A stretch of 64,000 nt of DNA from Blasia pusilla (GCA_050084515.1 CM114271.1:5642001-5706000), one strand, 5' to 3'; shown: positions 3,001-64,000, counted from the stretch's first letter. A program made the numbers and translations. The notes: a model not told the origin generated them from the letters alone.

Positions 3001-3158
3001 CGAGACTTTAGTTAAGATTAGGATTAGGGTTGCTTGTGTATACCCTATATAATTAAGAAGAGTACTAGCCTCCACTCATTCTCCCATTGAAAAATTTTGT
3101 TCTCCATCGGGGTGTGTGAGTGTGAGAGCCATTTTCCACCAATTATGCTTCTTTAACA
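1..3158 (+). mobile_element. Degenerate Ty1/Copia LTR retrotransposon, 3' part (integrase, RT, RNase H, PPT, 3' LTR); 5' part is outside the window
   Basis: Integrase (GGEYFS..F, YIPQQNREAERKNRHIAEAARAML), SRDVVFDE, RT remnants (MDVKNAFLNG; LKKAVYGL*QAPRAW-like), RNase H (GFIDADWA, STSGY.F.LG, LSSTEAEY, TKHVEMHYHFIREK). Order INT-RT-RH is Copia. Many stops and frameshifts. Confidence 0.95.
2856..3158 (+). repeat. 3' LTR of the Copia element (~300 bp)
   Basis: Follows the polypurine tract GAGGGGGAG (2847-2855). Starts TATTGAAG and ends CTTTAACA, an imperfect TG...CA inverted terminus. TATA-like CTATATAA near 3045. Confidence 0.7.
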
Positions 3159-5411: not shown

Positions 5412-5699
<288 letters not shown>

Positions 5700-8449: not shown

Positions 8450-8695
8450 AATAATAATATTAGAAAGGGGGTCTCATAAACAAACATCTCGATTCGACTT
8501 TTGTCTAGTTTGTCTCTCCGTCTTGACACTTGTCCCCTCTACTAGTTTAGTTTCATATAACTAAATCAGATGAGAAGGAAAGTTTCTTTCTCTACTCGAC
8601 TTCTGTCTAGTTGGTCTCTCAATCTTTACACTTGTCCCCTCTCCAAGTTCAGTTCCATATAACTACATTAGATGAGAAGGAAAGCTTCTTTCCCT
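8450..8695. repeat. Dispersed repeat with an internal ~100-bp tandem duplication; an inverted copy lies at ~32920-33060
   Basis: TCGACTT.TGTCTAGTT.GTCTCTC...ACACTTGTCCCCTCT...ATATAACTA...GATGAGAAGGAAAG occurs twice (8493-8592, 8595-8693). Its reverse complement is at 32920-33060. Confidence 0.75.
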
Positions 8696-9091
8696 CGTGC
8701 CCGGACTGATCAGAGAAGTGTTTGGAAATGAACGTTTTGTAATATTATAGATACCATAAGAATCCACCTCAAATCATGTACTTCTCGATCAGGAAATTCA
8801 TGTCGTGAATTTCCTCATCGAGAAAATTCACGACATGAATCTTCCGGATAAATGGGTTTGTGTACTTCTCGATAAGTGGTGGACTAGCAAGTACAATTTC
8901 TGAATGGGAGGCGATTGCGTTGCAGATTCTGAAGCGTGTTTTGGAAGGAGGGGCAATTGAGTCGAACTTTGTTGACAAGTTAGTTCCACAAGTCTGAGCA
9001 AGAGGTCGAGAGACCTATTCGGCCACACCCTGCGGACTTTCATGATGAGCTTCCTTTTCATCTCTATCCCTTGGCAGCCACGAAGATCATG

Positions 9092-11347: not shown

Positions 11348-11849
11348 CTTTCTTCACGACGTCAACTCAATGACTCCGGGTCCGTCTGACACGATTTCAC
11401 TCTCAGTAACTCGAAAACCCAACAACCTCATAACCACCAAACACTTTCCAGAGACGAACTCTGCCCAAAATGTCGTCTCTCTCCATCATCCTCCTGCCAC
11501 TCAAATTCGATCACAATGAGAAACCCAAAACCTGGTCAGCTCCATCAATTCACCTCATGATCCTCTGAGTGCTTTCCAGCTCCACTCTGAAGCTTCGAAA
11601 GAGTGCGACCCAGAGTCAGCTCTGTTGACAGATGGGGACAAGCAAAAACGTGCAAGTTCCATGACGTTTTGAAGCATCACAGGGAAACGATAAACACTGG
11701 GTAAATCGGAGGAGGATCTTGTACCCAGCACATTTGCGCGTCGAATTCTTAGAAACACCATTTACTAGATCCCTCAAAAGGACTCAACCTTCTACGAGAT
11801 TGGTTGGATCGAAGTCATCCACTTCGGAGGAAAAAGGAAATAATTAACT

Positions 11850-16112: not shown

Positions 16113-19100
16113 ATGCTCCAACTATTATGGAGGACATGTCTATTCAACAAGATGAGGAGGTTATCAACAATATCTCCACACTTAATACATTCGAGGTGTG
16201 AAAGGGTGAAGAGTACAATGTATCGAAACTTGCCTTTTGGAATGTGTTGTAATCATGGAAAAGTACAACTCCCATTCTTAAGGTGTTCTCCTCCTTTCTT
16301 GAAATCTTTGATTTCTGGTGTTGGAGCTCAAAGTCTACATTTTCTTTCACACATTTGAGCTTATAATTGTGCTCTTTAGTTAGCATCTACTGGAGCTCAC
16401 GTGAAGGAGCAAGTTGTTGGCACCGGACACTTTCGTATTCAAGGTGGAATTTATCACAAGATCAGCCCATTGCATCCAAACAAGGGAAGTAATCCCCAAT
16501 TTGCTCAACTATACATCTACGATATTGAAAATGAACTAGAAAATCGAGGAAGAGTTATGTCTGATGATCTTCGACCAGATATCTTAAGAGGGTTGCAAGA
16601 TATGTTACATGAACATAATCCCTATCCGAGGATATTTCAACACATTGCAAATGAGGCAAGTGGACCTAATCTTCATATCATTCTAATGGCGCATAATCAA
16701 GGAATGGACTCCAAACGTTATACCTTACCAACTGCATCTGAGGTTACTGCCATCTTACCTCGTGATGGTAGTGAACATATTAACCCACGTGATATTATTG
16801 TTCAATTATATGGTAGAGGAGTTCGTCGTATTTTAGATCTAAATTAAACATATATTCCATTGCATTTTGTTCTATTGTTTGTCTTTGGTAAGCAGGATGG
16901 CATCCAAGTATACCTCTTGGGAGATTTGAAGAAACCACAACTCAAATATTCCTACTACCGTTGTCGTGTTAAGAGCCTTTCTTCGAGTAAGGATGGACCT
17001 TCTAGCTACGGCAGATGTGGTCGATTCAAGGTAAACTCTCTAAGAAGTTCTATTTTTTCAATACAAAATTATTATGTATAATCTCTATTCTCTCATGACA
17101 GGTATCACAAATGGAAGTGCCGAGGCGATCACTTCTTTGTAACATCAGACCCCGAAATTCCTAACTATAAAATCCTTATAAACTACTTTACGCTTGTACA
17201 CGAGGAAGATAGCACAACTAGTGTTAAACCCTACTTGTGCAGGCGTATTGACGTCCATGGATCATTATATAAGAACATACAAAGTATAATCCCATATCCT
17301 TCCATATATGACGATAGGAAGAATCGCCGGAGTTGGAGATTGTATGACCTGGTTCATGAACGCCTCCCCTAAGTGATAAACTAAATAACGAGTGAAACAG
17401 TGTCTATCTACAAAAAGTACCTTGACATGGTAAGGATTGAGGAAAGGAAAGTCGGGCACAACTCGTACTCCACCCCTATCCATGCTTGACAAACATTCTC
17501 TACTCTCTTTAAGAGGGGTAATCCACTCTCATTGGGAAAATAACAAGCCAAAACATTCATTATTTTAGTATGACTAAACTTCTCTAAGATGACAAGCCTC
17601 TCATCTCCACACACACACACCACACTCTAGAAACCTCTCGACGAATAGACCATGATCAAGTTACTTTCCCAAGAGGGGTGATCCACTCTCATTGGAAGAG
17701 CAAGAAATCCCAAAGCCATACACTCAAGAGTGACATGTGAGACTCAAGATTTGAAATAGAAGATGATGAAACCTTGAAGGTCCCTCCGCTTTATATACTC
17801 ACAAGGGATCCACTAGAGTACGAAATAGAGCTAATATTATCTTATGCCACATGGCTACCTCTCAAGGCTTAGCCAATCACATTTTGACACAAGTAGATTT
17901 CCTCTTATCTCTTCCAAAACATCCTCTTTTACCCACTTGATATTTTCCAAATTACCCTAGCCTAGCCACCAACCAAGACTACTTTTGTTTTTATAAAGTC
18001 ATCTTTTATTTATTACCTCTTTTCCTAAAGTTGGGCCCACATAAAAGAGGCACCATAAAGAAGTTTAAACATTGGAATTTCCTTTTCCTAGACTAATTTA
18101 CATAATACTAATAAAACTCTATCTAACACTTAATGAGGAAGGAGTTTACACACTTGCTGATTTTACTATACGACACCGTGGATGGAGATATGGAAGAATT
18201 GGATGATTATGTAGAGGAAGAAAGAATTGATTATGAGATTCCTCATAAAGGAAGGATAAAAACTATTACAACGCTGCAATTTGCATCTTTTCAACTTGAA
18301 ACCCGTGTCGGTACCGAAGACGATAATCGTTTGCTTCGATTGTGTCGTCTTACTCAAGAGTACATGGTTGATATGTATGCTATAATATAGATGCAAAAAA
18401 TATCTTGGGTTTGATTAAATCAAAAGGAGTTAGGAGTTGAATTATATCAAGGTCTAAAGGATGTCCTGTATCAAAGTGACAGAGATGGTGCAAGGTTTGG
18501 GAGGCATATTGTATTGCCTTCTTCTTTTAGTGGAGGTCCACGCCATATGCATCAACTTTATCAAGATCCAATGGCCATTATGAGGCACCATAGAAAACCG
18601 GATTTCTTTCTAACAATGACATGCAATCCTAAATGGGAGGAGATGACATCAGCACTAACTTGGTCAACAACCTACTGATAGATCAAATTTGATTTTATGA
18701 GTTTTTGAGAAAAAAAAAGACTAATTAAGGCTTATTCTCAAGAAGCACATCTTGGGAAGGGTTGTTGGTTGCATTCATGTGGTTGAATTCCAAAAAAGAG
18801 GATTATCACATATGCATATTTTGATTATTCTGGATCATGAGGATAAGCCACGCTCAATATCCCATTATGATGATATAATATCTGCTGAGATCCCTAATCT
18901 AAACACTCATCCCAAACTTCATACTACGGTAGCTAATTGCATGGTTCATGCCCCATGTGGACAACTCAATCCAAATGCTCCATGCATAGATAAGGAAACC
19001 AAGAAGTGTAACAGAGGCTATCCTAAGCCTTTTGCAAGCATAACTACAGAGAGTGAGGATGGATATCCAATTTATCGAAGGTATGCAATCTATCACTAAA

Positions 19101-21912
19101 TTTTGCATCTTTTGGATCTGCAAAACTTCCAGACCTCATGATTTATTATAAGGTGTATCTATATTAATTTATTCCCTCATTCTTATGATACATGTTGGAT
19201 AATGGAATAAAGGTAATAAAGCGCACTCAAAGTTTGGACAACCGTTGGGTTTTTCCTTACAAGCCTTTGTTATGTACATTCTTTGATTGTCATATCAATT
19301 TGGAAATGACGAATAACATTTCAACTGTGAAATACATATATAAATATGTATATAAGGGATCTGATGCGATATCATTTAAGGTTTCAAATGATGCAACCAT
19401 TGAAACGACAAGGGAGACAATCGATGAAACATCATATTATCTTGATGCGAGGTAAGTGACTCTTTTGTAACTTTTTTTTTCATTGCTTCAATATGTCTAT
19501 AGATTCAAGAACATATGAGACCTTACTAATTTTGTTTTATTAATATTATTGTGTATCACATATAGATATGTTTCTTCCTCCAAATCATGTTGGAGATTGT
19601 TCAAGTTTAGCTTACAAGCCGAACATCCAAGTACTGTAAGGTTGGCGGTTCATCTACTGGAGTTACAAACCATTTTCTTCATTGATCACAACAATGTTGA
19701 GGAGATACTACAAAGGAATAGGAAGAGAACTCTTACACAATGGTTTGCAACTAATCACTTAGATTTGGAGGCTCAAAAATATCTATACATCGAGTTTCCT
19801 TCCTCTTATCGTTGGAGCCATAAAGAATGGATTCGAAGAATTCAAAGGAGAAATGGTTGTGGTCATCCCATTGGTCGTTTATATCTTACTCACCTAGATA
19901 AATATGTTTACAATTTCTACAATGTACTTACAAATTACGTAAAATTTCAAGCATCATTTAATAATTTTTATGTGTGGTATATTAAGTGATTACATTCAAG
20001 TTTTCATAGGTGAAGGAGAATGACATTGGTTGCGATTTGCTGCTTCATCATGTTCGAGGCGCAACTACGTATGAATACTTGAGAATTGTGCAAGGAGTGC
20101 TATATCCAACATTTAAGGAGGCAGTTATTCAAATGGGTCTTCTTGATGATGATAGGGAAGTGTTCTCATGCTTTCAAGAAGCATAAGAAATCCGCAGAGG
20201 TCGAAGCCTTCGTCAACTGTTTGCTATTATTCTCGTTTACAACAAACCAACTCGACCTGCTCAACTATGGAGTCAATTTTTTATCTCACTCATAGAGGAT
20301 ATTTTACATAAATGACGCCATATAATTCTCATTCCTACTTCCATGATAACAATTATTATTTTCTCCTTTTCTTTTGGACTTATCTCCCAAATTGTGGCCT
20401 TTATGCAGAAAACAGGGATTTTGGATCTTCCTCCAAACGCTTTAATTATTAACACCACATTATTGGAGCTCCACTACCATTTGCAAGATCAAGGAAAACG
20501 ATTATCTCATTTCCCATATATGTCTCAAGCGGATTTCCAAGCTTCATCTTTATATTTGTATTTGGAAGCAGAAGAGCTCGCATATGATTGAGATTACTTA
20601 CATGAATAAGCTACGTAAGGAGAGCAAAATTTGAATGATGGACAATGGTTGATTTGGGATGCTATACACGATAAACTTGATAGTATTATTTCTGGTGATA
20701 TTTCTTCTGGTTCAAGATTATTCTTCATTGACGGGCCTAGCGGAACTGGAAAAACCTTTTTATACAATCTTCTTCTTGCAAGTGTAAGAGTTGCTGGAGG
20801 CATAGCTTTAGTAGTCGCTTCATTGGGAATAGCTGCTTTGTTGTTAAATGGAGGACGCATTGCGCATTCATGTTTCAAGATTCCAATTAATGTAGATGAA
20901 AATCCACTTGCAAGTAAGTATATATTCATTTCATGACTTTGTATTTCTTTTAATGTGGTAAAGAGAACACTTTCCCAACATACTAATATCATTTGGTTTG
21001 TTATTTTATAGTTTACCTGTTAATAGCGAAGCTATGCGCTTGATTCAAAAGGCTTGGCTTATAATATGGGATGAGGCACCAATGACTCATCGCCATGCAT
21101 TTGAGGCTGTAAATAAAACTTTTCAAGATATCATGGGAGTGGTATCACAAGACTTGAGGAATGTTCTGTTTGGTGGCAAATTAATGATCTTTGGATGGGA
21201 TTTTTGCCAAGACATACCCGTTGTTCCTCATGGAGACCGGCCAAAATTTATTCAAGCTTCATTAAAGAGGTCATATTTATGGTCTCATGTGAGGGTAATG
21301 AAGCTTACAACAAATATGAGAGTTCAAAATTTGGAAGTGAAAATGCGTGTACATCAACAAGCTTTTGCAGATTGGTTTATTGGAGGTTGGAGAGGGTCGT
21401 GTGCCTTTGGAATCTCATTTGGGAGAGGATTTTATACGATTGCCAAATCGTATGGTGACCAAGAGTAAGAAGATAAGTGATCTTATTAACATCATCTATG
21501 GAAATGATTATGAAAAGTTTCGTGACATTAACTTTTTAAGAGATACAACAATTCTTACACCGAAAAATCGAGATATTAATGACATCAATGCAGAAGTGAT
21601 GTCTCAATTCTATGGATATTGGTTTCCAAATAATTTTCATGTTATTTTCTTCACAAGTACTTGAATCATATTATGCATCAAAAACTAAAAGCATCTTCTA
21701 AGATATGATTGTTCTATGCAGGAACGTATTTATCTTAGTGTTGATTCTGGGATGAGTTATATCTATCTGACATAATTTTTAAATACGTGCTTACCGTCAG
21801 GTTTACCACCACATCATTTAAGCTTGAAAAATTGGTGCACCTATAATGCTCTTACGAAACTTGAATGGTTCAAAGGGACAAGCCAATGGAACTCGATTGG
21901 TGATCCGTGGAT
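16113..21912 (+). pseudogene. Helitron RepHel pseudogene (Zn-finger/N-terminal region, HUH Rep, Pif1 helicase), with introns
   Basis: CCNHGKVQLP, FRIQGGIYH, PQFAQLYIYD, EFQKRGLSHMHILI (HUH), DNRWVFPY, KYIYKYVYKG (Y2), FIDGPSGTGKTFLY (Walker A), IIWDEAPM (Walker B), ILTPKN, NGTRL. Many stops and frameshifts. Confidence 0.95.
17138..18150 (-). mobile_element. Probable solo LTR (~1.0 kb) inserted in Helitron A
   Basis: Interrupts RepHel. Termini TGTAAC...TTTACA. Minus-strand TATATAAAG near 17790, a CA microsatellite and an internal short duplication (17511/17671). TSD is imperfect (CACTT[CTT] / CACTT). Confidence 0.65.
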
Positions 21913-29989: not shown

Positions 29990-30570
29990 TGTTGGGCTGA
30001 TCTGAAGAGGACGAGTCGAACAGGAGGAGAAGAAGAAAGCCTCAACGGGAAGAAAAGAGAATGTCGAGCTGATCTGAGGAGGACGAAGGGGATGGGCGAG
30101 GAGAAGGAGGAAAGGTGCGACTGATCGGAGTAGGACGACGGACAGGGAGGAAGAGGAGCAGAAGATGAAAATGTCCGATTGATCTGAGGAGGACGAAGGA
30201 GATTGAGGAAGAGAGGAAGAAGAAGAGGTCATATTTACCTGACGAGGACGAAGGAAGAGGAGGGAAGTGCGTACTGATCTGAGGGGGAGGAAAAGGACAA
30301 AGTCGGAGCGACTGGTACGAGAAGAAGAACAGGTCCGATTGATCCGAGAGGTCGAAGAATCGACGACGAGGAGAGAAGAGAACTAAGCAGCACCTGCTCG
30401 ACGACGGAGGTACGGGCGGGCGAAGGAAGAGGAGGGAAGCGCGTACTGATCTGAAGGGGAGAAAAAGGACCGAGTCCGAGCGACTGGTGCGAGGAGGTCG
30501 AAGAAAAGACGACGAGGAGAGAAGAGATCTAAGCATCACCTGCTCGACGACGGAGGCACGGGCGGGCGAT
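29990..30570 (+). repeat. GA-rich degenerate tandem repeats in the LOLITA 5' region
   Basis: Repeated (C/T)TGATCTGAGGAGGACGAAGG motif, plus a ~150-170-bp duplication (30250-30423 vs 30422-30569) ending just before the ATG. Confidence 0.8.
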
Positions 30571-30577
30571 CGCAGAC

Positions 30578-31021
30578 ATGTTACTGGTGGTCTTGATCGC
30601 GACGCGATCCGGGACCGTCCTATTGGAGCGCTACCACGGGCTTCCCACCGACGAGAGGCAGCAATGGCGCTCGTTTCTGCTCAAGCTCACAGCAGAAAAC
30701 CTGAAATCCGCCCGCGATGATGAGCATTTTGTGGCCTCGCATAAGGCCGTGTTCGCCGTATACGCTGCCCTCGGTGAAATATGTCTCTTCACCGTCGGTA
30801 AGGACGAGTACGACGAGCTGGCCCTTGTGGAGGTTCTGTCTGCCATCAGCTCGTCTATCAGAGACGTGTGCAAGCGGCCCCCGAGCGAGCGGCTCTTTCT
30901 GGAGAAGTACGGGAAGGTGTGTCTGTGTGTGGATGAGATTGTGGTGCAGGGGAGACTGGAGCAGACGGACAAGGATCGCGTGCGGAGGCTCGCGAGGTTG
31001 AAGCCTCTGGCAGAAGCGTGA
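30578..31021 (+). CDS. LOLITA: TPLATE/TSET complex longin/sigma-like small subunit (LOLITA/TSPOON), 147 aa, intronless
   Basis: ERYHGLP.DERQQWRSFLLKL.AENLK, VGKDEYDELAL.E, PPSERLFLEKYGKVCLCVDEIV.QG.LEQTDKDRVRRL.RLKP. Sequence and length match my recollection of plant LOLITA. Confidence 0.9.
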   Translation: MLLVVLIATRSGTVLLERYHGLPTDERQQWRSFLLKLTAENLKSARDDEHFVASHKAVFAVYAALGEICLFTVGKDEYDELALVEVLSAISSSIRDVCKRPPSERLFLEKYGKVCLCVDEIVVQGRLEQTDKDRVRRLARLKPLAEA

Positions 31022-49299: not shown

Positions 49300-51538
49300 T
49301 CAACTTTTTATTTCCAAGTGTAATATGTATTCCTTTTTTATTCCTCTAGATAATGCTACGTACAATTGATCATGCGAAGAAACGGGAGTATGTAAGTAAA
49401 TCTCATTTTTTTCAAAACTCGACCTTGAGAATTATTTATGGTCATGGAGTTAAGGAATTTAACTCTAAGAAGAATAGGTAAACCAGAATTTGATGCAATT
49501 AATGGAATACAGGGAATAAAAATGCGTTCTCCAAGGTTCTTCCCTCTTATAATTTCCGCATCAATCACATGTTGTACAAATCCTTCAATTACCAATCGTG
49601 TACCATTTGTTTGTCCATTAGAGCCATCCATGTTTTGTAAGAGCATAATTTGTCATCACCCTCATAACCAAACGAGCACCATGTAGAACATTCAAACTCT
49701 AACGGGCTCACGCTAGGTTGTTTTGGCGTTGGAGTGGTCTCTTGGAAGAGACATAAGAGACACAAGAGATGAGACGCGAACAAGGTTGAGTGTTTCATGC
49801 GTTTATGGTCCCGAGTAGGAAACCTGGACCAAACATGATCCAAGACTTGAGAGGAGTCGAGTCTAGGGAAGTTGGTTGCCAAAGAGGTGGGAACCAGATT
49901 TGGAACGTGACTAGTATTTGGAGTTTTGATTGTATTTTGGACCATAAATTTTAGTCCCAAGATGCTTTTGAGACAAGTAAGGTGGAATTGGAACTTCTGA
50001 TAATTTTACAAAAATAGGATTTTATGGTATAATTTTTATATTTTTTAAAAACTTTGAGAATTTAAACGATGATTGAAGCTTTTCAGTTAAGCTTAGGCAA
50101 AGCCATTCCCAACGCACCAAAGATATCAACAAACGCATAAGGAGAGGGTGAGATATTGGCCAAAAACAGTTGTGCAAGGAGTCGGGTTGAGGGCCAAAAA
50201 CACGGGCTCGAGTGTCTCTTCCCTAAAGGAAGGAGGAGGGCAGCGATCCCCGGAAGGACTAGTAAGGGGGAAGATCCCAAGAGTGTTTGGGACTCAAACC
50301 CCACTTTGGGACGTCGCGGGACGACCCAAGGGCACAAAATGGATCGGGAGTTTTGGCGTTGGGATTCGACACCCAAACCAAGTCCAAAAGATTGGATTTC
50401 GAAGGTCCCTATTTGATAGTAGGGACCGCTAGGTGCATGAACGCAATTTTAGGTGCTTGGACCATCTAGAAAGTCTGTCCCAAGTCTCGAAAGACTTGCC
50501 CATGTTGGGAAGCTGGGAATTAAGAAAGGTTGAGCTTGATGAGGTGTTGAGTTCAGAACTCAATAGGTTGGAAGATCGATTGACCGAGACCAAACTAAGA
50601 TGAGTGTGTTTGGGTGTAGTTCGACAATGAGAGCGTGACATATTAAAGGTACGCTTCAACAACAGTGAAGACTGATGTTCAAAAGGAATAGACACACGAT
50701 ATAATTGGTGAGTCTATTTTCAAACACAAATAATGTGGAGGTAGGCCACAAGGCAGGCATGTACTTGAGAATTTCTTCGCCTAGATATGACTTATACTCT
50801 CATTCGGGACTAAGTTAACATTGAGGTAAGTACGCTCTTATACATAACCTTCATAATATTATGGATTAGATGTACTCATGAACATATATGATATGGATAA
50901 CTTACTTATATGAATGGAAAATCATTATTACTTATCCATGGAATCGAGAGATGACTTCATCGTCTATCTCATTGACATCTCTATTTCGTGGTGTCAAAAT
51001 AGTTGTATCTCTCGAAAGGTTGATGTCATACAAGAGTTGAGGATCATTTCCATAAATAGTATCAATAAGATCACTTATTTTCTTACTTTTGGTAACCATA
51101 TCAGGTGGCAATTGTATAAAATCATCTCCCAAGTGTAATTGCAACGGTACGCAACCTTCTTCCACTTCCAATAACCAATCAGCAAAAGCTTGTTGGTGAA
51201 TGTGCATATGACCTTTCAACCTTTGAACTCTCATATTTTTACTTAACTTCATCACCCTTACCTGAGACTATAACATTGATCTCTTTAAATTGGCTTGCAT
51301 AATTTTTGGACAATCCCCATGACGAATAATTGGTAAGACTTGGAGGAAATCACCACTAAATATTATCAACTTCCCCCCAAAGGATTCATGCCTCAATTCC
51401 TTGCAGACCACTCCCATAAAATATTATAAGGTACAAATTTATGCCTCAAATGCATGACGATGAGTCATGGGTACTTCATCCCATATAATAAAGTGAAGCT
51501 CATCAGATTAGGTGTGTTGCACAACTATTGACTAGCAA
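49300..51538 (-). mobile_element. Degenerate Helitron (C), Pif1 helicase remnant
   Basis: IWDEVPMTHRHAFEA, FSGDFLQVLP, MKLSKNMRVQ, ILTPRN, NGTRLVIEGFVQHVIDAEII, MTINNSQG. Collinear with Helitron A. Confidence 0.88.
49651..50701. mobile_element. Solo LTR (1051 bp) inserted in the Helitron C helicase, with 5-bp TSD TAATT
   Basis: Starts TGTCAT and ends CACGATA (degenerate CATGACA). TAATT on both flanks (49646-49650, 50702-50706). Removing it rejoins LKIDSPIMLL. Same family as 28310-28730. Confidence 0.88.
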
Positions 51539-53210: not shown

Positions 53211-56200
53211 TTTCATGTATGACAAAGTAAATTTCCACCTATTATCTATTAAACCATATTGGTTTTCTTGTCAAGTTGTACGAAAGATTTTTTATGGCCC
53301 TGAAATACTTAAGTCAAGACCTAAGAAACATACTAGCTCGCAGGAGATAAACTCAAGTAAGGGAATACCGAGGGGAATACTAGAAAACTTGTTTTAAAAG
53401 CAAATAGGGTTTTTTTGCTACTACCATACCCACATGTGTTGGTGATCTATATTCAATGGCTACTTCTATTGTTAGCCTCTAATAGGTAGACCTGGATTTG
53501 ATGGGTTGTTTTGCATAAGTGAGCCACAACATCTGCGCCACTCAACCCTTTCAGATCCACATGGGCTGAATAGGAGGCTAGCTTCAACTCCACACCTATT
53601 CCAGACTTGGGGATGCCTTGGATGCAACCCCTGCCTTATTGAATCTTGTGGACAGTGTGAACTCAAGGTAAGCATGTAGATCTCATCTACCGCATCGTCA
53701 TGTAAAGATGGCAAGTAGTGGGTTCTTGTTGCCTAGTAAGTGATGAGCTTTGTGACTTGTATGATTTCTATCTCCTATAGGATAAGCTCTGTGTTTTTTT
53801 GTTATGGCAAATACATACATATAACAACGGAGGAAATTTTGAATATCTTCCAATTTTGAGCCGAGGTAGCCTTCAATCTCCATTGTGGAAAATAGTTTGG
53901 ACTTTTGATGCGATCTCCATTATAGCATTGCCAATTTTATAAACTTTACATGTTGTATAGGTTCTGTGCGGATTGCATAAAAAAATACGTCGAGAGGAAC
54001 TTGGATAGGAGTTCAATGACATTTCCAATTTTGTATATATTCCTCTTTCATGATGTGTCGAAACACATTAACAAGTATGCGGCCTATGCAATTAGTAATA
54101 CTAAAAGAAGTTAAAAAGTAAATATTATTTTAAATATAATTGTATGAATTTAAAGTACTGTAGGGAAAAGTAAGTTTTGTAGCTTTAGGTAGGTGTTGCA
54201 TAAATTTGGCTAAGAAAGAATTTGTATGAATGGGAAAGAAAATAATTTATTGGTGACCATTTATCAATGTTATGGGGATAATGTAATAATTTTTACGTTG
54301 GCTTTGAATATCAAAACATGAAAGAATTTATCGAGAGTATTGGTGACAGTAGTTAATTCATTAAGGAATGTTTGATATGATTTTTTTTGGTGCAGTTAAG
54401 GAATGTGAAAGAAATGTGTGCCGAAAATAAGTCTTAGAAAGAAATCAAACGATAAACATAGTATTCCACCCAGAGGGTAGGACATGCAAGAAAGTAAAAG
54501 TAAAAGTGGATATTCATTCTGTAAGGAAAAGTAATTTAGTCCATATTTATCCAAAATCTTTATAAAAGGCGTTGGTGTGAGTGAACTAGCAAACCACTCA
54601 TAAATGCATAAAAGTACAATTGAAGTAGCATGTTCCAAAAACCATGATCTAAAGTGCACACGGGATATGAGAGCACTTCAGCTGAAGATTTGAACAACAA
54701 GTTTAATCTAAACCATATTGTATAGGATGTCATCTATCCTCTATAGTCTCTCAACATGGACTGAATTATACTAAGTGGTGGACTATCTTCTATACGGGGA
54801 CCAAAAAGCCTTGCAAAATCAAAAACTTGATTTCTGATTTCCTACAACTGACTTTTGAGAGCTTAAATCTCAACAACGTCTTGTTGGTTTTGTTGAAGTA
54901 AAGAAAAGAGTGCTTCATTGAGGTCGTTCATCAGTGTAGGCAAGTGCAGGCTGTTGTACTCTACTACACGGATGGAATATGTATAATCATCATCGGATGA
55001 TTGTACTCTCATTTCATCACTACTAATGCCTTGATGGTAGTGAATGTTGACATCTCTCTCCCTGGAGTGAATTTTGTTGGCTTGTCAAGCAGCATGCAAT
55101 GATGATACAACTTGATGCATGGGTCCGCGATGAACTAGTTGGCCTACACGCAAACCTGATCTCTAAGAAATAGAAGCAAACAAATTTATGAACATTAGAA
55201 TTTATCATTGGTGTAGAATTTAAAATGAAGACAATGAGGAAAGGAAAGTGGAACAAATAAATAGTGTAGTGCACTCTATCACAATTGAGAAGAGAATTAT
55301 GCAATAAAGATATCACAGGATTGTAATCTAGAAGTACGGTTAGAACAAATATGGACATAAATATACAGATGAGAAAAAGTCAGAATAGAAATGAAAGAAA
55401 ATTCACAACTGGTATGAGAGGTATTCATAAATCCAGCAAACATAATTTAATGAAAACTTGTACTTTTATATTAGATATATAGTAGAAGAAAGCTCCGAAC
55501 AGTTACAAAATGTATGCAAAAGCATAGATAAAGATTGTGTGTAAGGTAGCACCGATAGCTTTCTAAGTAGCAGAAATGCAAAGCAATAAAAAATCAGCAG
55601 TATGAAATCAAAATGTATGCTAATGGAGAGTGGTGTTTATCATTGCAGTTGTGACCTGCAAAACTAGAACACATGGTACGAGTACAATTCATTGAAGCAA
55701 ATTGAGCAAGAATGGAAAAAGAAACAAAGCAATAGCCTTATATCTTGCCAAGGGTTGGTTTGTACTTCAGGCACATTTGCGCTTGTTAGCTTATGTAACA
55801 AGAAGGTTTGTATCATAAGTGACATTTGCTAGGTTTGGTAAAGAAAGATTGGTCACGGACATTGGGTTGGCATGTGGCAAAGTTGAAGATGATGCCTGGG
55901 ATGGAACAACGGCAGGTGTAGAGGAAACAAGGATGACATCCTCAAACTCAGGAAATAGCTGCATATGCGGAGGATTATAAAGGTCAATAGGTAGGGGGGC
56001 AAACTGTGGGAGCTTGCCATCATCATGTGCAGTTTTCATGCCACGAATTAATTAAGGTGCTTTTACAGAGGAGGAATCTAGTAATATTGTAAGTGGTAGA
56101 TGCATCTAATGTATGAGTGTTATGAGTTGTTTAAATGGATGTCACCATTGATGTTCCCAAAATGATGGCTGACGCCTAGATTGTCTAAATACTTCATTTG

Positions 56201-56581
56201 ATTCTCAGTAGGCGATGTATAGCGTGGCCTCACATCCTCTTGCTCAGTGTTAATGTCGTTTAAAATCATGGTGGAAAAAATGAAATAGTTCATAGGAACT
56301 TGAGAAGTGAGTGTTAGCAAATGAGGTTTGTTACTTTACAAAGTCAATTCCTCCAAAGTATCGCCCCAAGTGAATGACTGCTGAACTGCATTGGCCAATC
56401 TGAGGAATTTGAACAATAGGATGAGGCTTGCCCGCTGATCTTGCAACTCGTTCACGTATGGAGCTACCTTGGGATGCCATCCTTCTTAAAATGATAACAA
56501 AGAAAATTAATCTTGCAAATGATGATTATCTTGTCCAAATTCTTGGAAATCTGTAGGATGTAGTTCCCCAAAAATCCCTAG

Positions 56582-57733
56582 CTAGTTTATAGCCTTTACT
56601 TGAGATAGCATGACATAAGCAAGGTCTATAGCAAATACAGACTTGATAACCAAAAGACAAGGACCATAAATTGTTGAACCGTGACTCTTGTGACCCGTCA
56701 TTGCGTATCTGAGAGTTAGTGGGAATGGCCTTTTAAAATACTTCTGTTGGGATGCATACGTGAGAGTTGCAAATTTTGATCTACTAATGATCAAATATTT
56801 GTTGCTTCATAATATGCTGATCATAATACCTACCAAGCCCTCACCATTGTAAATTAAGTATATCACCTTTGCTAAGGAGCCATTGGCACCTTGCAGCCTC
56901 AAATTGATATTTGAAGTAAGCATAACAACAAAATGCAAGGAAACATATGGTAACCGGTGGAGTGTGGTGTCTTCTAACCAAGCACTAAATTCAGGTGTGA
57001 GTGGAGCATCTGATGTAACAAGCACTTTCATAATAGATGCATCCCCAAACAATCGTCTTAAAGCAAGTACATTGAACACTGACACATCTTCACAGTGTGT
57101 GCATATAATTGTTGTGTCATGGTGAATGAAATCAATAGCTTCATTTTCTAAGACAAAATAATCGGACAACCAACTATTAAGCTCAAATTATGTAGGTGGT
57201 GTGTTTCTAATAGAAGTAAGAAATTTAAGGTACTCTGGGTCATGTGAATGCCTCACTGGAGTTGACAATTGAAAGGTCATGATATTGTGGAAGAATATCT
57301 CAACATTGAACACTCGTCTATAACAACCACTTGAGCAGACTTCAACCTTCAAAAAGTATCAGAACTAGGGTGCATTCTTGGGAGATCACCTTTTATGGGT
57401 GTAGCAAAGGCAGAATGAACACTTGTGACCTCATTGTGAAGCCTAATAGCAACAATTCCTATAGTTTTTGTTAGCAATGGGCTCATTGTTGCCCGAGTCC
57501 ATATTTTGTGCATGAATGTTATGAAATGTGTCTTGCCACAACTAGGTGGACCTTTTAGAAGTACAAGACTTGACGCAAGGCTGTGGAGAGTATTAAAAAG
57601 AGTTAATTTCTCATCATTAAGACTAGAGAGATCAATGTTCCGGGAATGGACCTCATGTAGTGGTGATGAACAAGAATTATGGCATGAAGAGGTCAAGAGC
57701 ATGTCACTAATGTTTATATCTAGTTCAGGTGAA
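56582..57733 (-). pseudogene. Degenerate, intronless Pif1-like helicase distinct from the canonical Helitron helicases in this window
   Basis: LLKGPPSCGKT (Walker A), IGIVAIRL..VTSVHSAF, VVVIDECSML (Walker B), VRHSHDPEYLKFL.SIR, ICTHCED, VMLTSNIN...GANG, FPLTLRYAMTGHKSHGSTI, AYVMLSQV. The motif III region appears deleted, and the 5' end is cut by the Gypsy LTR. Confidence 0.85.
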
Positions 57734-59668
57734 TCTTTTAGGATAGATCGATGAGATCTAGTAGAGCAAGTTTGGGAGTAGTGGAGGACAGGCTCATGAG
57801 ATCGAGGATAACCTATTGAGGCCCCAAGAAACCTGAGGGAGCTGGTTTCCCCTTCGTTTCGGCTCATTTTGGAGCCATATTGAAGAACTTACTATTTTGG
57901 GCGATTACCATTTTGAGTATATGATCAAATTTTTTTTTTTGAAAGTGTCCCTTGACCTCCTACATCAGTTCAAGAGCCAAGGAGATGACTTGGGAGCATA
58001 TGTTACCATGGAGAGAGCTTGGGAGAGGGGAGGGGTATACCTCAAGGAGAGAGAGCTTGACAACTCATTCTCTCTTTGTTGAATCTCTTGGCATGAGGGG
58101 GCGGAGTTATGGTCTTGCTTGCCTTGTGTGTGTAGCCCAAGCCTCTCATTAGGAGACTGGGTTTGATTTGACATTGAAAGAGATACGTGAGAGTGCACAT
58201 ATGTGAGAGTTATGGTGTTATGAGAGAGATTTGACCTTATTTTACAAAGAGAGAATTAAGAGAGTGAGAGAGCTTCAATGGAGGAGTTGGCTAATCACTC
58301 ATTGATGTGCCAGTTGGGGATCGTGTTCCCCATTCATCGACTCATGGGAGTGCTCACCGGAGCAAGCGCTACTTATTTTATTGTTTTCCATTTCAAATTT
58401 GTTTTTGTGGAAGAGTGGCGCGTGGAAGCGCTGCCCAAATGATTCTTTAGAGATGAAGTTTGGGGCGGTGTTCCAATGCTCTCAAGAGCACCAAGTAGCT
58501 TGCTGATTTGAAGCAGATTTAAAGGGCTTCATGACAGTTCCCTTCAATTTTTCTGGGAAAGTCAAGTGAAGAAAAAAAAAGATGCTGCTGTAGATCTCAA
58601 AGCTCTACACGTTGTGGAAGAAATAGTGCGCGATTATGAGTTGTGAGAAAAATGTTATGGTTGATCTTGCAAAACTGCCATTGCTAGGCGATTTTTAGGG
58701 TAAAATTGTTCAAACCCTAAACTAGCTTCCGCGCCCGCGGCGATTGTCGCGATCATAGTCACCATCAAGGATCCGCAATTAACGATCAATCGTCACCATC
58801 GGCCGCCGCTGCCGCCTAGCGCCGCTTAGAGCCGCGTTCGGCCGTTGTCCACCGTTGGTTGCCATTGCCGCCATTACGAAATGGACGGTCACCTTCCACG
58901 ACGACCATTGATTCTTTGACTTGAGCCGCCACCACGTACTCTGTTGTGGCCGCCGCCGTCATCGTAGTTTTTTCATCAACCAATGATGGCATGTGATATC
59001 GGGTTGATGGTGTTTGAGTTAACATTTCATTCTGCTATGTTGTGATTGGTAGCCGTTTGACAATGGTCGAGTTTCGTTCAGTGACGCCCATAACCGCAAT
59101 GCGCCGCCGATTGTCACGTTGTGCCGCTTGTGGCCATACCGCACCATCTCGATCGCGGAGCCACTCCTTCACTAAGGTGTAGAGTGTGTGTATTGATGAT
59201 TGAGAAGGGTATGCCATGGAATGCCGCATCCCGTTATCGAGTGTCGTGCCATTTTTTAGCTGTTTCGTCTCGCGAGTGCTGCACCATACCATTGGATCCG
59301 CACCGCATAAGAAGGAGGTTTTAGCATCGTTAGTACTAGAGGGGGTAAAACTTGCTGATTATAGGATTTTGTTGTCATGATCGAATTGGGTTCGAGGTTT
59401 GCAGTTGCTAAGGAGCGATCGACATTTATTCAAGTTTTCCATTATGGTCTTTTGCATGGACGTGTTAGGGAATTCCGAGTATTGGGTGGTTATTTGGGAT
59501 ATTGGGTTTTGTGCAGATACTAAGAGCATCATTGATGTATGGGTTTAGGGGACATAGACTTGTGTGGGATGTCTAGAGTTAAGGGTATGTGTTGTTCATG
59601 AGATGATAGGACAGTAGTTGATTTGCCGCACCATGCCGCTTGTTGCCGCACAACACACTTCTCAGTGA

Positions 59669-59960
59669 GATAGACCATCATTGACTGTGGTCAACATGAT
59701 TGGCATGCCACAAGAAGCCTTTCCCACATTGGTAAGTTTTCCCGCTTCCTATGCATTCAAGGAGGCCGGGATTGGCTTTGTTTGGGATTACCAGGTACGG
59801 GGGTGGTGGAGCCCAACATCGATGAGCGAGAGCGAGTGATGGGATTCCCCACAGGAGTGACGGCAATACCGCCACTATCAGAGGCATCACGACGTCATGT
59901 CTTGGGTCAAGCAATCAACATGAACTGCTTGATATGGATTTTCAGCTTAGGAGTAGCTGA
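59669..59960 (+). pseudogene. C-terminal fragment of a C5-cytosine DNA methyltransferase (TRD plus motif IX/X-like) inside the Gypsy element
   Basis: Reads DRPSLTVVNMIGMPQEAFPTLVSFPASYAFKEAGIGFVWD, then after a frameshift VEPNIDERERVMGFPTGVTAIPPLSEASRRHVLGQAINMNCLIW. E.ER.MGFP..T and R..LGQA resemble motifs IX and X. Confidence 0.75.
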
Positions 59961-62900
59961 GCAGATTCGTTTGAGGATGCAATTGATCATAGTTGTTGCG
60001 TTGGTGAGCCCCATGCCTACCGAGACGATCGAGGAAGTGGCTGGGGATGAGACCCGAGGAGATCAACACACCGGGGGTGATCGAGAGAGACACCCTTGGA
60101 CTTCTTGGGATGTTTTGCACGTACACCGGGAGATGATAGCCACAACATCGAGCGTGGTTTTGGGTACTATACATGGAGGAGATCCGATTTTGCAGTTGGC
60201 TGCATGAGAGGAGTCGAGTTCTGTTGTCCGAGTTGGGATTACACCATAGCAAGCACTAGCACCCACGCCGGAGAGTCCTATGGTAGTCACAATGGAGACT
60301 TGGAAGGCAGATATGGGCCTTGAGTTGACAAGCGGAGAGCGGCGCCAGATACACCAATTCCTTAGGAGTTATAGGAGTTGTTTTGCATTTAGTATGCAAG
60401 ATTTGGGTACGATGAATGGTCCAAGGATCTACATAGAGTTGTCGAGTGACACGCCAATCTTCCGACGACCTTAGAGGTATAGTGACATGGAGAGGGCTCT
60501 GATTCAAAGTAGGAGCTAGGACTTAGTTGGAGCAAGATTAGTGAAGATGTCGCATGGAGAGTATGCATGTGCCATAGTCATGCCCGCCAAGAAGGATGTG
60601 CATGGCAATCGAGATGGCAATTGGACGGTTAGGCGGATGTATGGAGATTACCAACCTATCAATCGATAGAAAAAGTCCGATAGGTAGATGCCATTCCCAC
60701 CCCTGAGGAGATCTTTGATGCTTTTGGACATGCAAAGGTCTTCAATTCGTTAGATCTTCGAGATGGATACCATCAGCTGCCTATTAGATTGGAGAACATG
60801 CAGAAGACGATATTTTGGAGCATCGAGCCTCATGGGAAGGATTATTTGTATAAGTGGAGGTTCTTACCATTTGGGTTAAAGAACGCCCCGGTTGAGTTTT
60901 AGAGGGTCATGGATAGGATCTTGGCAGGTCTGAATTTTGCTAGGTGTTACATTGATGACATCGTAGTCTTGAGCGCCACGATTGAGGAGCATGAGCGACA
61001 TCTAGAGGAGGTGTTTTGAAGATTTCAATTACATGGGCTGAAGCTACATCCAAGCAAGTGCAAGTTCTTCGAAGACCATATTGAGTACCTGGGTCATACG
61101 ATATATCCATGGAGTCTTGGTGTGCAGCAGACAAAGATAGAGGCTATTTCATGCATTCCATGCCCTACTGATGTGAGTCGAGTTCGTGCATTCATGGGAT
61201 TAGCAAACTTCTATCAACGATACGTCAAGGGGTTCAGTTTGATTGTGAAGCCGTTGACCTTATTGACCAAGGTGGATCAAGAGTGGCTCTAAGGGATGAG
61301 CAGGAGAGAGCATTTCAGCTGCTCAAGGATAGATTGACGTCCGCGCCCATGTTGAGGAGACCGATCAGGGGGCGTCCTTTCCAGTTGCATACCCATTTGA
61401 GCATGTTGGGGCTTGAGTCGTGCTCACCCATCATGACGATGATGGTAGAGATTTCGTTGTGGCTTACGCTAGTCGCTCGGACAACGCTGCAGAGGCAAAG
61501 TATTGCTCGTATGAGAGTGAGTGCTTGGCTGCGGTATGGGTTGTCGCACATTTTAAGTGTTACCTATTCGAAAACCCCTTTACCATGATTACTGATCATC
61601 AGCCACTTAAATGGTTGATGGAGTCCGGAAAGCTTACATGGAAGTTTGCGAGGTGGGCTCTTTTGTTGTAGGAGTATGACTTTCTGGTGGTGCATAGGCC
61701 TAGGACGCTCAACCAGGATGCAAAGGTTTGAGCCGTAACCCATGCCTGAGATAGCGAGATGCAATTGGAGCTTGTCAGCATGGTGAGAATGATGAGGAGT
61801 TGGTGCCAAGATGGCACGCGTCAGCCTATTTGGGCTTGTTGGCTATGGAGAGCCAGATTGCTTAAGCTTCGATGGCGAGGTTTGATGGAAAGTTCTTAGA
61901 TCTTGAGGCCGGTGAGGAGACGATAGGTGGTCGAGACATTCACGACGGTGGAGTAGTCTTGGAGTACATGCGTAATGGCAGTGTTGCGAGCACAGTGGGT
62001 GCTAGAGAGCGGGATTGGATTCTACAGCGAGCTAGACGGTTCCGGTGGGAGGTCACACATATGTTGCAAGTGTGGGAGGATGGTAGAGTACGTGTAGTGC
62101 CTCATCCTTCATAGAGAGCACGTTTGGTGGGTCATGCCCACAAAGAGTTGGATCATTTTGGAGTGAAGCGGACGTACAACTTGCTCTAAATATAGTATTG
62201 GTGGTAAGGCCAGTAGCTTGACGTTCAACAGTTTGTTGCCATGTGCGGGCATCGTTCAATGCTCGAATCCACAATTGCATCCACTTCCGATCATGGGTTT
62301 AGGTTATAGATGGAGTTTGGATTTTGCAAGACCTTTACCTTTGACGGAGCGCCATAGTCGTTATGTGTTGGTGATGGTCGAGCACTTCTCGAAGTGGATA
62401 GAGTTGGTTGCATTGTTTGACAAAATGAGTAAGGGAGTAGCATATGCCTTCCTAGATTGAGTGTTGAGTCATTACGGTGCACCATATGAGGTGTTGACAA
62501 ACCAAGATACCGAGTTTTGCGGGGAGTTTCAAGCCTTGTGTGATGAGGCGATGATCGACCAGTGCACCACTTTGCTAGATCATCCTCATGCGGATGGACT
62601 AGCGGAGAGGGTTGTGCATACGGTGAAGAGAGGATAATACAAGTATGGCATGCAGAGAGGTCACATAGGAGATTGGGACCTCCAGTTTTTGTGGTTGGCG
62701 ATGGGATATAGATTCAACAGGCACGCATCCTTAGCATCTTTCTCACCATATTTGCTACTTTATGGGCGAAAGCCTAATTTACCTACGGCCATTTGTCAAG
62801 GTATTGGTGAGGTGTTGAAACTTGATGACCTTGATGTATGGATGCGAGCATGTTCTCATAGGAGTGAGGTTGTTTCGGAGATTGATGCCCATGGGGTTTG

Positions 62901-63199
62901 AGAACTTGGCGATTGCGCAGCATCCGGATACGTTGAGGTATGTGACTACTCGGGAAGGTGGTTATCGACCTACTATCCGGAGGTTTCATCAGGGAGACTA
63001 TGTCTACTTGCATCAGATGGCACCCATGATGTTGGATGTGACTTCACGGCGCACTATCTTGAGAGTGCGTGAGATTTTGCCATGTGTTGTTATCTTATTG
63101 GAGGGATGCAATGGTATGGTTTGGAAGGACCATGTGCGTAATTGTGCGCCATGTCACCTTTCGAACATTGAAAATATAGTAGTTCCTGTAGGCTTACGA

Positions 63200-63334
63200 T
63201 GTATGTTGTGTGGTTATGGTTGTGGTGCAGTCACTATGCTAATCAATGATGGGTGTTCGAGAGGATGGCAAATGGCATGTTTGACGCCACCTCTCACTAG
63301 GGTTCCTCAAGGACGATGAATGTTTCCCAGATTT
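63200..63334 (+). pseudogene. Degenerate PHD finger at the integrase C-terminus
   Basis: CMLCG...TMLINDGCSRGWQMACLTPPLTRVPQGR*MFP matches the PHD consensus C..C...MLLCD.C..GWH..CL.PPL..VP.G.W.CP. The TGA is at the conserved Trp. Confidence 0.85.
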
Positions 63335-64000
63335 ACATATAGTAGGTAGTTCTAGATTCCAACTTGTGTCAGTGACAACGATGAAAAGAAGGCAACTAAC
63401 GATGGGCCATATGAGCACCCGACCTTTTTGCTCTTAGCGTCCTAAAGATGTATGTCATAAAAGGTAGGGATATATGACTATCTGGAGTTAGAGGGACCTA
63501 ACCACCAGCTAGGGGGGCGATTGGAGATATTTTGGTACTTCTCGCCTCTGTGTTTGGATGCCATGATTTAGCATGGGATCGTGCGTGTTTTTGTGTGTGT
63601 GTGTGTGTTCGATGACAGCGATGTATGTTGTGTAGCGATATGTATGAACACGATAAGTGTCATGTCTTTTAGGATATATCGGTGAGATCTAGTAGAGCGC
63701 CTTCGCGAGTAGTGGAGGACATCTGAGGAGGTCGAGGATGACTTGTTGAGGCCCCGGGAAACTTGAGAGAGCAAGTTTCCCCTTCATTTCAGCTCATTTG
63801 GGGCCATATTTAGAAACTTGCTATTTTGGGCAATTATCATTTTAAGAATATGATCAGTTTCTATTCTAGGAAGTATCCCTTACCTCCTACATCAGTTCAA
63901 GAGCCAAGGAGGTGATTTGGGAGCATAGGTTACCATGGAGAGAGCTTGATAGCTCATTCTCTTTTATTATACCTCTTGGCATGAGGTGGCGGAGCTATGG

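Follow-up and report, generated by a model that had tools for sequence, protein, structure and literature searches.

A decayed Gypsy retrotransposon copy with remnants of a Dnmt3-like DNA methyltransferase and a PHD finger in a liverwort genome

The element at the end of the window

The 64,000-nucleotide stretch of DNA analysed here (GCA_050084515.1 CM114271.1:5642001-5706000; the window) ends, at positions 57727-64000, in what is very probably a Ty3/Gypsy-type retrotransposon of the Gypsy-DNMT3 kind, present in a liverwort genome as an old copy that is reduced by internal deletion and broken by frame shifts. Its recognisable parts are listed in Table 1. When the polyproteins of relatives are used as tblastn queries, reverse transcriptase (RT), RNase H and integrase are found in this order within 60271-62956; they are preceded by the C-terminal remnant of a Dnmt3-like C5 DNA methyltransferase (MTase) and followed by a decayed PHD finger. 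Pfam scores of the copy itself are weak, both for RVT_1 (E 0.0014, 18.8 bits, below the cut-off) and for rve (E 5.9e-5, 23.7 bits, below the cut-off of 32.6), and those of the RT and integrase of its relatives are well above the cut-offs. Neither a Chromo domain nor Phage_integrase is present in any of 19 relatives scanned against Pfam, and the seven of these that contain both RT and integrase have rve together with Integrase_H2C2. A preliminary description, made from the sequence, had assigned the element to the Gypsy type and reported that it lacks a chromodomain; the Ty3/Gypsy order of RT, RNase H and H2C2 plus rve integrase agrees with this assignment. The purine-rich tract just before B1 may have a role in priming.

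Table 1. Coordinates of the recognisable parts of the copy within the window
Feature	Position	Strand	Basis or remark
Repeat A1, 5' terminal repeat	57727..58250	+	Start blurred; homology to A2 clear from 57734 (alignment to 63658-64000)
Internal stretch without recognisable coding	58251..59635	+	No gag, protease or MTase match at E <= 0.2
Dnmt3-like C5 DNA methyltransferase, C-terminal remnant (motifs IX-X region and tail)	59636..60159	+	tblastn
Reverse transcriptase, two frames, change near 60686	60271..61290	+	tblastn to P0007 and P0111, 28-45% identity
RNase H, frame changes near 61292 and 61414	61298..61770	+	tblastn, 40-53% to RNase H of P0111, P0109 and P0007
Integrase (H2C2 zinc-binding part and rve core), frame changes near 62263 and 62868	61899..62900	+	tblastn, 31-46%
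Integrase C-terminal extension ending in decayed PHD finger (~63200-63340)	62903..63340	+	Aligns to Pfam-positive PHD fingers (P0111 etc.)
Purine-rich tract at polypurine tract position, just before B1	63505..63520	+	Same tract precedes B1 in L021
Repeat B1, internal copy of second repeat	63521..63657	+	Read joints; partner B2 would fall past the window end
Repeat A2, cut off at window end	63658..64000	+	85.4% identical to A1 over 336 nt

The methyltransferase and PHD remnants

The peptide from which an MTase was first proposed is in frame at 59809-59930. A search of 5.8 billion proteins with the 177-residue open reading frame (ORF) at 59674-60207 found one longer protein, P0001 (E 2.2e-24, 52% identity). 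This is an intact gag-protease-MTase protein, in which a CCHC knuckle and an aspartic protease precede a full C5-MTase that has the FGG, PCQ and ENV motifs (PF00145, E 2.5e-10, 40.8 bits against a cut-off of 22). In the reverse comparison P0001 matches the window in two different frames, 59669-59821 and 59809-60159, with a frame change near 59803-59821 (tblastn E 7e-38); the match covers residues 772-928 of P0001 only (~155 residues), and the MTases of P0007, P0154 and L063 likewise begin to match at 59636-59648. Such agreement lies well outside chance and bears out the proposed C5-MTase C-terminal remnant. The window lacks the catalytic motifs I (FxGxG), IV (PCQ) and VI (ENV), its homology to P0001 beginning only at residue 772; these motifs are kept in P0001, P0003, L002, L010 and L063, and L032 has PWQ for PCQ. 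Intact relatives also keep the C-terminal motifs IX and X. The Pfam comparison suggested in the preliminary description gave a divided answer: none of ten ORF pieces of the window matches PF00145 or PF00628, because the pieces are too short and decayed, but homology searches do find both the MTase and the PHD finger.

Sequence and modelled fold both mark the enzyme as Dnmt3-like. When P0001 is compared with the Protein Data Bank, the best 27 of 40 matches at E <= 0.01 are DNMT3A, DNMT3B or DNMT3C (E 1.3e-9 to 3.9e-6), and other matches include HaeIII (4.7e-5), tobacco DRM (0.0022) and HhaI (0.004); P0001 residues 823-856, which correspond to the remnant in the window, align to DNMT3A 235-268. 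For the natural MTase ORF of L063, an AlphaFold model based on an alignment of 30 sequences (pLDDT 82.8, pTM 0.79) has DNMT3A/B/C as all 31 listed Foldseek matches, the best being 6w89_A (E 1.8e-20, TM 0.83 on target). Animal DNMT3A/3B are thus the best match of the MTase domain in both sequence and fold, yet at ~20% identity, and the remnant has more in common with MTases carried by elements (52% identity with P0001) than with the solved DNMT3 chains. DNMT3 pairs its catalytic domain with an ADD domain, a zinc-finger reader of unmethylated H3K4; the liverwort family instead has a classical PHD finger at the far end of the polyprotein, with RT, RNase H and integrase between it and the MTase.

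The PHD finger is also a remnant. Window positions 62819-63319 share 63% identity (E 1e-67) with an intact ORF of L032 (12407-13528) that spans integrase core and PHD finger, and a PHD probe from P0111 matches the window at tblastn E <= 1e-4. In an alignment to relatives made by eye, zinc ligands 1, 2, 4 and 6 are kept (four of eight, so that the C4HC3 pattern is incomplete), and the third ligand, the histidine and the seventh and eighth ligands are lost, with a stop codon at the position of the conserved W. The proposal that a PHD remnant lies behind the integrase is upheld. PF00628 follows integrase in four of five long relatives (P0111, P0079, P0081 and P0109; E 4.4e-13 to 8.3e-10), and the PHD finger of L032 is intact. 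The solved structures nearest to an intact PHD finger of the family are those of KMT2C/KMT2D, CHD4, KDM5A/B, PHF21A, ATXR5, UHRF1/2 and DPF3 (E 8e-11 to 1e-6). Among these proteins are several readers of H3 tails that lack methylation at K4.

A family that carries both modules

The abundance of the family was read from raw reads of the same species, mapped on 56501-64000 at 80% likeness, with both orientations summed for DNA depth. Depth on the flank is 3.6-6.9; it is 1886-2090 over the MTase piece (59751-60250) and 1937-3452 from RT to integrase. The MTase end matches RT in abundance, with roughly 360-650 times the depth of the flank, and the species has family sequence equivalent to several hundred copies. 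Within this large family the window copy is an old outlier, because 91,776 of 117,711 mapped DNA reads are less than 90% like it; at most of its frame-change sites, 34-80% of family reads carry an indel difference. Among indexed sequencing runs no RNA run holding the element was listed, and all indexed shares were at most 0.18. Three stranded RNA runs of the species give an interior depth of 45-230, at ~10-100:1 in one orientation, and a depth of 0 on the flank, which fits sense transcripts of the family. The preliminary description had spoken of an ancestral family; that the family carries both modules holds, but it is not merely ancestral, being represented by several hundred copies' worth of sequence and by sense transcripts.

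Relatives were collected from two sources. With P0001 as the query, HMMER found 3942 proteins at E <= 1e-3, 305 of them at E <= 1e-30, and 168 proteins were classified with domain probes. These fall into two domain orders, one in which the MTase lies between protease and RT, as in the window, and a second, RT-RNase H-MTase-integrase-PHD (34 complete, many partial); a PHD finger is present in 50 of the 70 integrase-bearing proteins. A scan of JGI metagenome contigs gave 128 confirmed places, of which 80 were kept as loci. In 61 of these, RT stands behind the MTase; 13 have less than 900 nt after the MTase, six are arranged otherwise, and integrase comes next in none. Where at least 800 nt lie behind the integrase, 22 of 27 loci have a PHD finger there. 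Read depth and these two counts confirm that the MTase and the PHD finger are both modules of the family, as had been supposed. One locus, L063, has gag-protease, MTase and RT-RNase H-integrase in one frame with two in-frame stops, and in L021 the MTase domain lies ~3.7 kb downstream of the end of A1. Nucleotide identity between loci and the window is 68-70% in alignments of 3.1-4.0 kb, and in a comparison by eye stretches of L021 agree near letter for letter with the reads of the species where these leave the window copy; because of this agreement and these alignments, the loci are good stand-ins for the intact form of the family.

An MTase tree (145 sequences, 325 columns, midpoint-rooted, no outgroup, and as such silent on one versus several host captures) places all 22 first-order sequences on one side and all 78 second-order sequences on the other, with SH-like support of 0.93. 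The window falls in a clade of ten with support of 1.0, together with Marchantia, Calypogeia, P0001/P0152 and four metagenome loci. In the branch that contains Closterium and the liverworts the MTase precedes RT; that of the Scenedesmus 'pol' protein has it between RNase H and integrase. Named members are OAE22373.1, OAE24016.1 and OAE20926.1 of Marchantia, CAM6104272.1 of Calypogeia and GJP34393.1 of the streptophyte alga Closterium sp. NIES-68, which has the first order and lies in the same half of the tree as the window; the second order is found in 'pol' of Scenedesmus sp. PABB004 (KAF8056149.1). The Marchantia and Calypogeia models, public 'hypothetical proteins' (P0004, P0024 and P0083 of Marchantia polymorpha subsp. 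ruderalis and P0009 of Calypogeia fissa), are decayed fragments of family members. None of these four has any Pfam match, and in P0004 gag knuckles and MTase motif I are still recognisable; decay to which Pfam is blind would explain why censuses of DNMT proteins miss the Marchantia and Calypogeia pieces.

As seen in near-intact relatives, the full plan of the family is A1 - gag (CCHC) - aspartic protease - Dnmt3-like MTase - RT - RNase H - integrase - PHD - B1 - A2 - B2, with the coding part in one long frame.

Split repeats and decay of the copy

The terminal repeats had been described as long terminal repeats (LTRs) of a Gypsy element. Direct terminal repeats are indeed present, but they are split repeats of the form A-coding-B-A-B rather than plain LTRs. 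Five co-linear direct-repeat blocks, each of 79-93% identity, connect 57734-58112 with 63665-64000. DNA reads in which the end of A is joined to 63520, where the stretch ahead of A2 begins (187 reads for 58174 to 63520 and 120 for 58243 to 63520, 307 in total, with joints at 58174-58244) represent the A2-B2 junction of other copies. The arrangement is complete in L021, where a 340-nt repeat A lies at 1679-2017 and 10350-10692, and a 113-nt repeat B is found on both sides of the second A. In the L021 unit, 1679-10805, A starts with TGTCATG and B ends with CATGACA, which gives the whole unit inverted TG...CA tips. B1-A2-B2 follows the PHD finger in nine of 21 loci with enough tail, and A1 is present in all four of those with more than 3.7 kb upstream of the MTase. 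Such repeats imply a replication or end-forming route unlike that of plain LTR elements.

The preliminary description also held that this copy is dead, and this is confirmed. It has about seven frame changes (near 59803-59821, 60686, 61292, 61414, 61750-61900, 62263 and 62868) in addition to in-frame stops, and it is without gag, protease and MTase motifs I-VIII. Relaxed tblastn searches of 58001-60200 (E up to 10), with gag-protease and MTase N-terminal queries from five close relatives, found nothing upstream of 59636, and gag, protease and the N-terminal part of the MTase went undetected in 58001-59647 even at E = 10. In their place is ~1.4 kb of unrelated sequence, where relatives have ~4.4 kb comprising leader, gag, protease and MTase motifs I-VIII. 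Since the relatives P0007/P0154, P0012, P0216 and L063 have a CCHC gag and an aspartic protease, the missing part is a deletion in the window copy and the family is not deviant. The unrelated stretch, 58251-59635, has no blastn match among the 80 metagenome loci. DNA depth is 2700-3800 up to ~58250 and then drops to ~550 (550-746 at 58251-59250 and 186 at 59251-59500, as against ~2000-2800 further on), so that the stretch, at ~35-140 times the flank, is common to a minority of the family only; it could be a leader confined to a deleted, non-autonomous sub-family.

The repeats A1 and A2 are 85.4% identical over 336 aligned positions, with 34 transitions and 15 transversions (Kimura two-parameter distance, K2P, 0.165). 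The copy is therefore an old insertion, and it cannot function by itself. It has A or T where the family reads G or C in 479 places (248 + 231), against 221 (116 + 105) in the reverse direction, an excess such as deamination of methylated C would be expected to produce. CpG observed/expected ratios are 0.74 for the element and 0.61 for the window as a whole; the element is not specially depleted, and nothing is concluded from these values.

Relation to known elements

Capture of C5-MTases by retrotransposons of dinoflagellates and charophyte algae had been cited as established. This is in print, but so is the Gypsy-DNMT3 kind itself, described as KnitGypsy-Dnmt3 from the charophyte Klebsormidium nitens (de Mendoza et al. 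2018, PMC5890265). The printed account of KnitGypsy-Dnmt3 agrees with the liverwort family in having a Dnmt3-like, non-rearranged MTase inside a pol ORF with Gypsy domains, A-coding-B-A-B repeats, signs of purifying selection on the MTase and a streptophyte host (PMC5890265); the legend states that its repeats are the same as in the DIRS element, whose printed layout is 'A-coding region-B-A-B' (PMC5890265). It differs in its charophyte host and its 'fewer copies', where the liverwort family lives in a land plant with several hundred copies' worth of reads (PMC5890265). The liverwort family has a PHD finger behind the integrase, and the word PHD is absent from the main text of the KnitGypsy-Dnmt3 paper (PMC5890265). 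The DIRS element, SymbioDIRS-Dnmt3 of Symbiodinium, shares the Dnmt3-like MTase in pol, the split repeats and the coexistence of two domain orders in one lineage; it differs in having a tyrosine recombinase, in belonging to the DIRS class and in its dinoflagellate hosts, and its enzyme methylates CG in yeast, which no Gypsy-kind enzyme is shown to do in that account (PMC5890265).

Other elements combine comparable modules. Chromoviruses also have a histone-reader module fused to the end of integrase, but the module is a chromodomain and there is no MTase, whereas the family in the window has a PHD finger and an MTase. The EpiLTRs of Euglena and Collodictyon likewise unite DNA methyltransferases and a chromatin reader in one LTR element, but these are a DAM adenine MTase, a DNMT4-related DNMT and a chromodomain, as against a single Dnmt3-like MTase and a PHD finger (bioRxiv 10.64898/2026.05.21.726589); the same 2026 preprint names 'streptophytes (Gypsy-DNMT3)' as a separate, earlier case. 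PHD fingers on retrotransposons have been called widespread in the literature. Among open-access papers and bioRxiv, Gypsy-DNMT3 was found in print for Klebsormidium nitens only, with no land-plant report. The element in the window is thus a land-plant addition to an already known kind; what is possibly new is in the detail, namely a PHD finger as partner, the MTase at two constant places in pol, and a range that extends from a chlorophyte (Scenedesmus) by way of a zygnematophyte to liverworts.

When a transposon brings its own DNA methyltransferase, host and parasite exchange their usual roles, in that the parasite carries the silencing tool of the host. Printed hosts of such transposons are dinoflagellates, one charophyte and, recently, Euglena and Collodictyon. 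The window copy itself is a wreck, and the interest lies in its family: liverworts are tractable, Marchantia having both genetics and methylomes, and DNA and RNA runs exist for the species of the window; an abundant, transcribed Gypsy-DNMT3 family would make several questions testable in a land plant, among them the role of the enzyme, PHD-guided insertion by the integrase and the handling of A-B-A-B ends by a DDE integrase. There is also a practical side, since decayed Marchantia and Calypogeia pieces that are annotated as 'hypothetical proteins' escape Pfam-based DNMT censuses.

How the modules might act

In intact members, the polyprotein would be cut by the element's own protease. The Dnmt3-like enzyme might then travel with RT and methylate the new cDNA or the fresh insertion, a step that we regard as a serious possibility, though short of probable; methylation of cDNA or of new insertions was proposed for the DIRS elements by the 2018 authors (PMC5890265). 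With similar reserve, the PHD finger at the end of integrase may hold the integration complex on histone H3 tails, probably those without K4 methylation, and thereby bias the choice of landing sites. A comparable role is documented for the chromodomain at the C-terminus of chromovirus integrase, which directs integration (Gao et al. 2008, cited in PMC6673714).

Several points weigh against this reading. The MTase and the PHD finger lie at opposite ends of pol and, after protease cleavage, may never act together. The ligand of the PHD finger is a guess from the names of the nearest solved relatives only, the likeness to KnitGypsy-Dnmt3 comes from a printed description rather than a sequence comparison (PMC5890265), and the intact MTase is known from relatives, not from copies of this species. 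Selection gives a mixed signal: dN/dS of the MTase is 0.15-0.17 when L063 is compared with three others, but dS in these informative pairs (1.7-2.0) is saturated, and three close copies give dN/dS values of 0.62-0.89 among themselves, in keeping with decay after insertion. Of the RNA reads in run X16, 4011 of 5253 are less than 90% like the window copy, and the RNA reads show transcription of the family, not translation, nor transcription of this copy or of the N-terminal part of the MTase. Finally, the KnitGypsy-Dnmt3 enzyme gave no methylation in yeast, a result from which its authors draw no conclusion because human DNMT3B failed too (PMC5890265).

This last result also favours an alternative in which the Dnmt3-like domain is kept for a role other than DNA methylation, such as RNA binding or modification, particle structure or interference with the methylation machinery of the host, so that the element would have no writing half. 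An RNA role has been raised by the same authors for a LINE-borne DNMT (PMC5890265), and purifying selection shows that a domain is used, not what it is used for. We consider this alternative rather unlikely, given that intact relatives keep motifs I, IV (PCQ), VI (ENV), IX and X, that the modelled fold best matches DNA-bound DNMT3A/B and that the related SymbioDIRS-Dnmt3 enzymes methylate CG de novo in yeast (PMC5890265).

About as improbable is an alternative for the PHD finger, in which it acts after insertion, by recruiting or blocking chromatin factors of the host, or serves in nuclear import or particle assembly, instead of guiding integration. The finger lies ~200 residues behind the integrase core and nothing links it to target capture; against this, the C-terminus of integrase is the place of the chromodomain in chromoviruses (PMC6673714), the finger is kept in 50 of 70 integrase-bearing proteins and 22 of 27 loci, and its nearest solved relatives are readers of histone tails.

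The split repeats raise the question of whether the element is a Gypsy element at all, because A1-B1-A2-B2 direct repeats are defined as a hallmark of PAT-like and Ngaro elements (PMC4157794). Nevertheless, a DIRS- or PAT-like retrotransposon with a tyrosine recombinase is contradicted and highly improbable: an H2C2 plus rve DDE integrase lies behind RT-RNase H in the window as well as in relatives, Phage_integrase is absent from the seven relatives with RT and integrase among the 19 scanned, and among solved structures the integrase matches Ty3 Gag-Pol. A one-off chimera, with part of a host DNMT3/DRM pseudogene or of some other element inserted by chance between repeat and RT of this single copy, had been named in the preliminary description as one of the findings that would overturn it, and is almost certainly wrong: although only the C-terminal third of the MTase is present, adjoining 1.4 kb of unrelated minority sequence, and no window piece has a Pfam MTase, the MTase is as deeply covered by reads as RT to integrase, MTase is followed by RT in most loci as well as in P0007/P0154, P0017/P0216 and the Closterium protein P0012, and the remnant is 52% identical to element-borne P0001 versus ~20% to solved DNMT3 chains.

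The reading in which the enzyme writes and the PHD finger reads could be extended, although as a whole this extension is doubtful, to an old Gypsy clade spread through the green lineage. Such a clade would combine a Dnmt3-type writer, a PHD reader and A-B-A-B ends with a DDE integrase, and would hold its MTase at one of two set places, ahead of RT in streptophytes but behind RNase H, and ahead of integrase, in the Scenedesmus branch; it would have survived into land plants and still be transcribed here from several hundred copies, and the Dnmt3 activity of the element could contribute to de novo methylation in a land plant or aid escape from it.

Host and surrounding sequence

The claim of a land-plant host is well founded. 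A small adaptor gene, tstD/TSPOON-like, at 30533-31021 (+), is apparently intronless (Clat_adaptor_s, E 4.5e-9) and is 88% identical to its counterpart in Marchantia polymorpha, 86% to that in Calypogeia fissa and 67% to that in Selaginella. These values place the host among the liverworts, as a species other than Marchantia polymorpha and Calypogeia fissa. The gene lies in a GC-rich island (GC 0.53-0.54, CpG observed/expected 1.04).

An Rfam scan of the whole window gave 0 matches. In the 5' flank of the element, 55001-57733 (-), ORFs with a P-loop-like motif adjoin repeat A1. A Helitron/Pif1-like identity of this flank was guessed from the motif and is unconfirmed: the flank ORFs have no Pfam match, and tblastx of the flank against the window gave nothing at E 1e-8. 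Elsewhere, Helitron remnants are present at 16380-21468 (+), with Helitron_like_N at 18725-19099 (E 6.9e-9) and a PIF1 helicase at 20962-21468 (E 5.7e-32), and Pfam also finds a weak PIF1 piece near 51 kb, at 50932-51267 (-). A 753-residue open frame at 9092-11353 (-) has no Pfam match itself and has six unnamed relatives, three of them with PF13640 (2OG-Fe(II) oxygenase). A fragment of a Copia-type element lies at 722-2577 (+), with a retroviral SH3-like domain at 722-1165 (E 8.5e-26).

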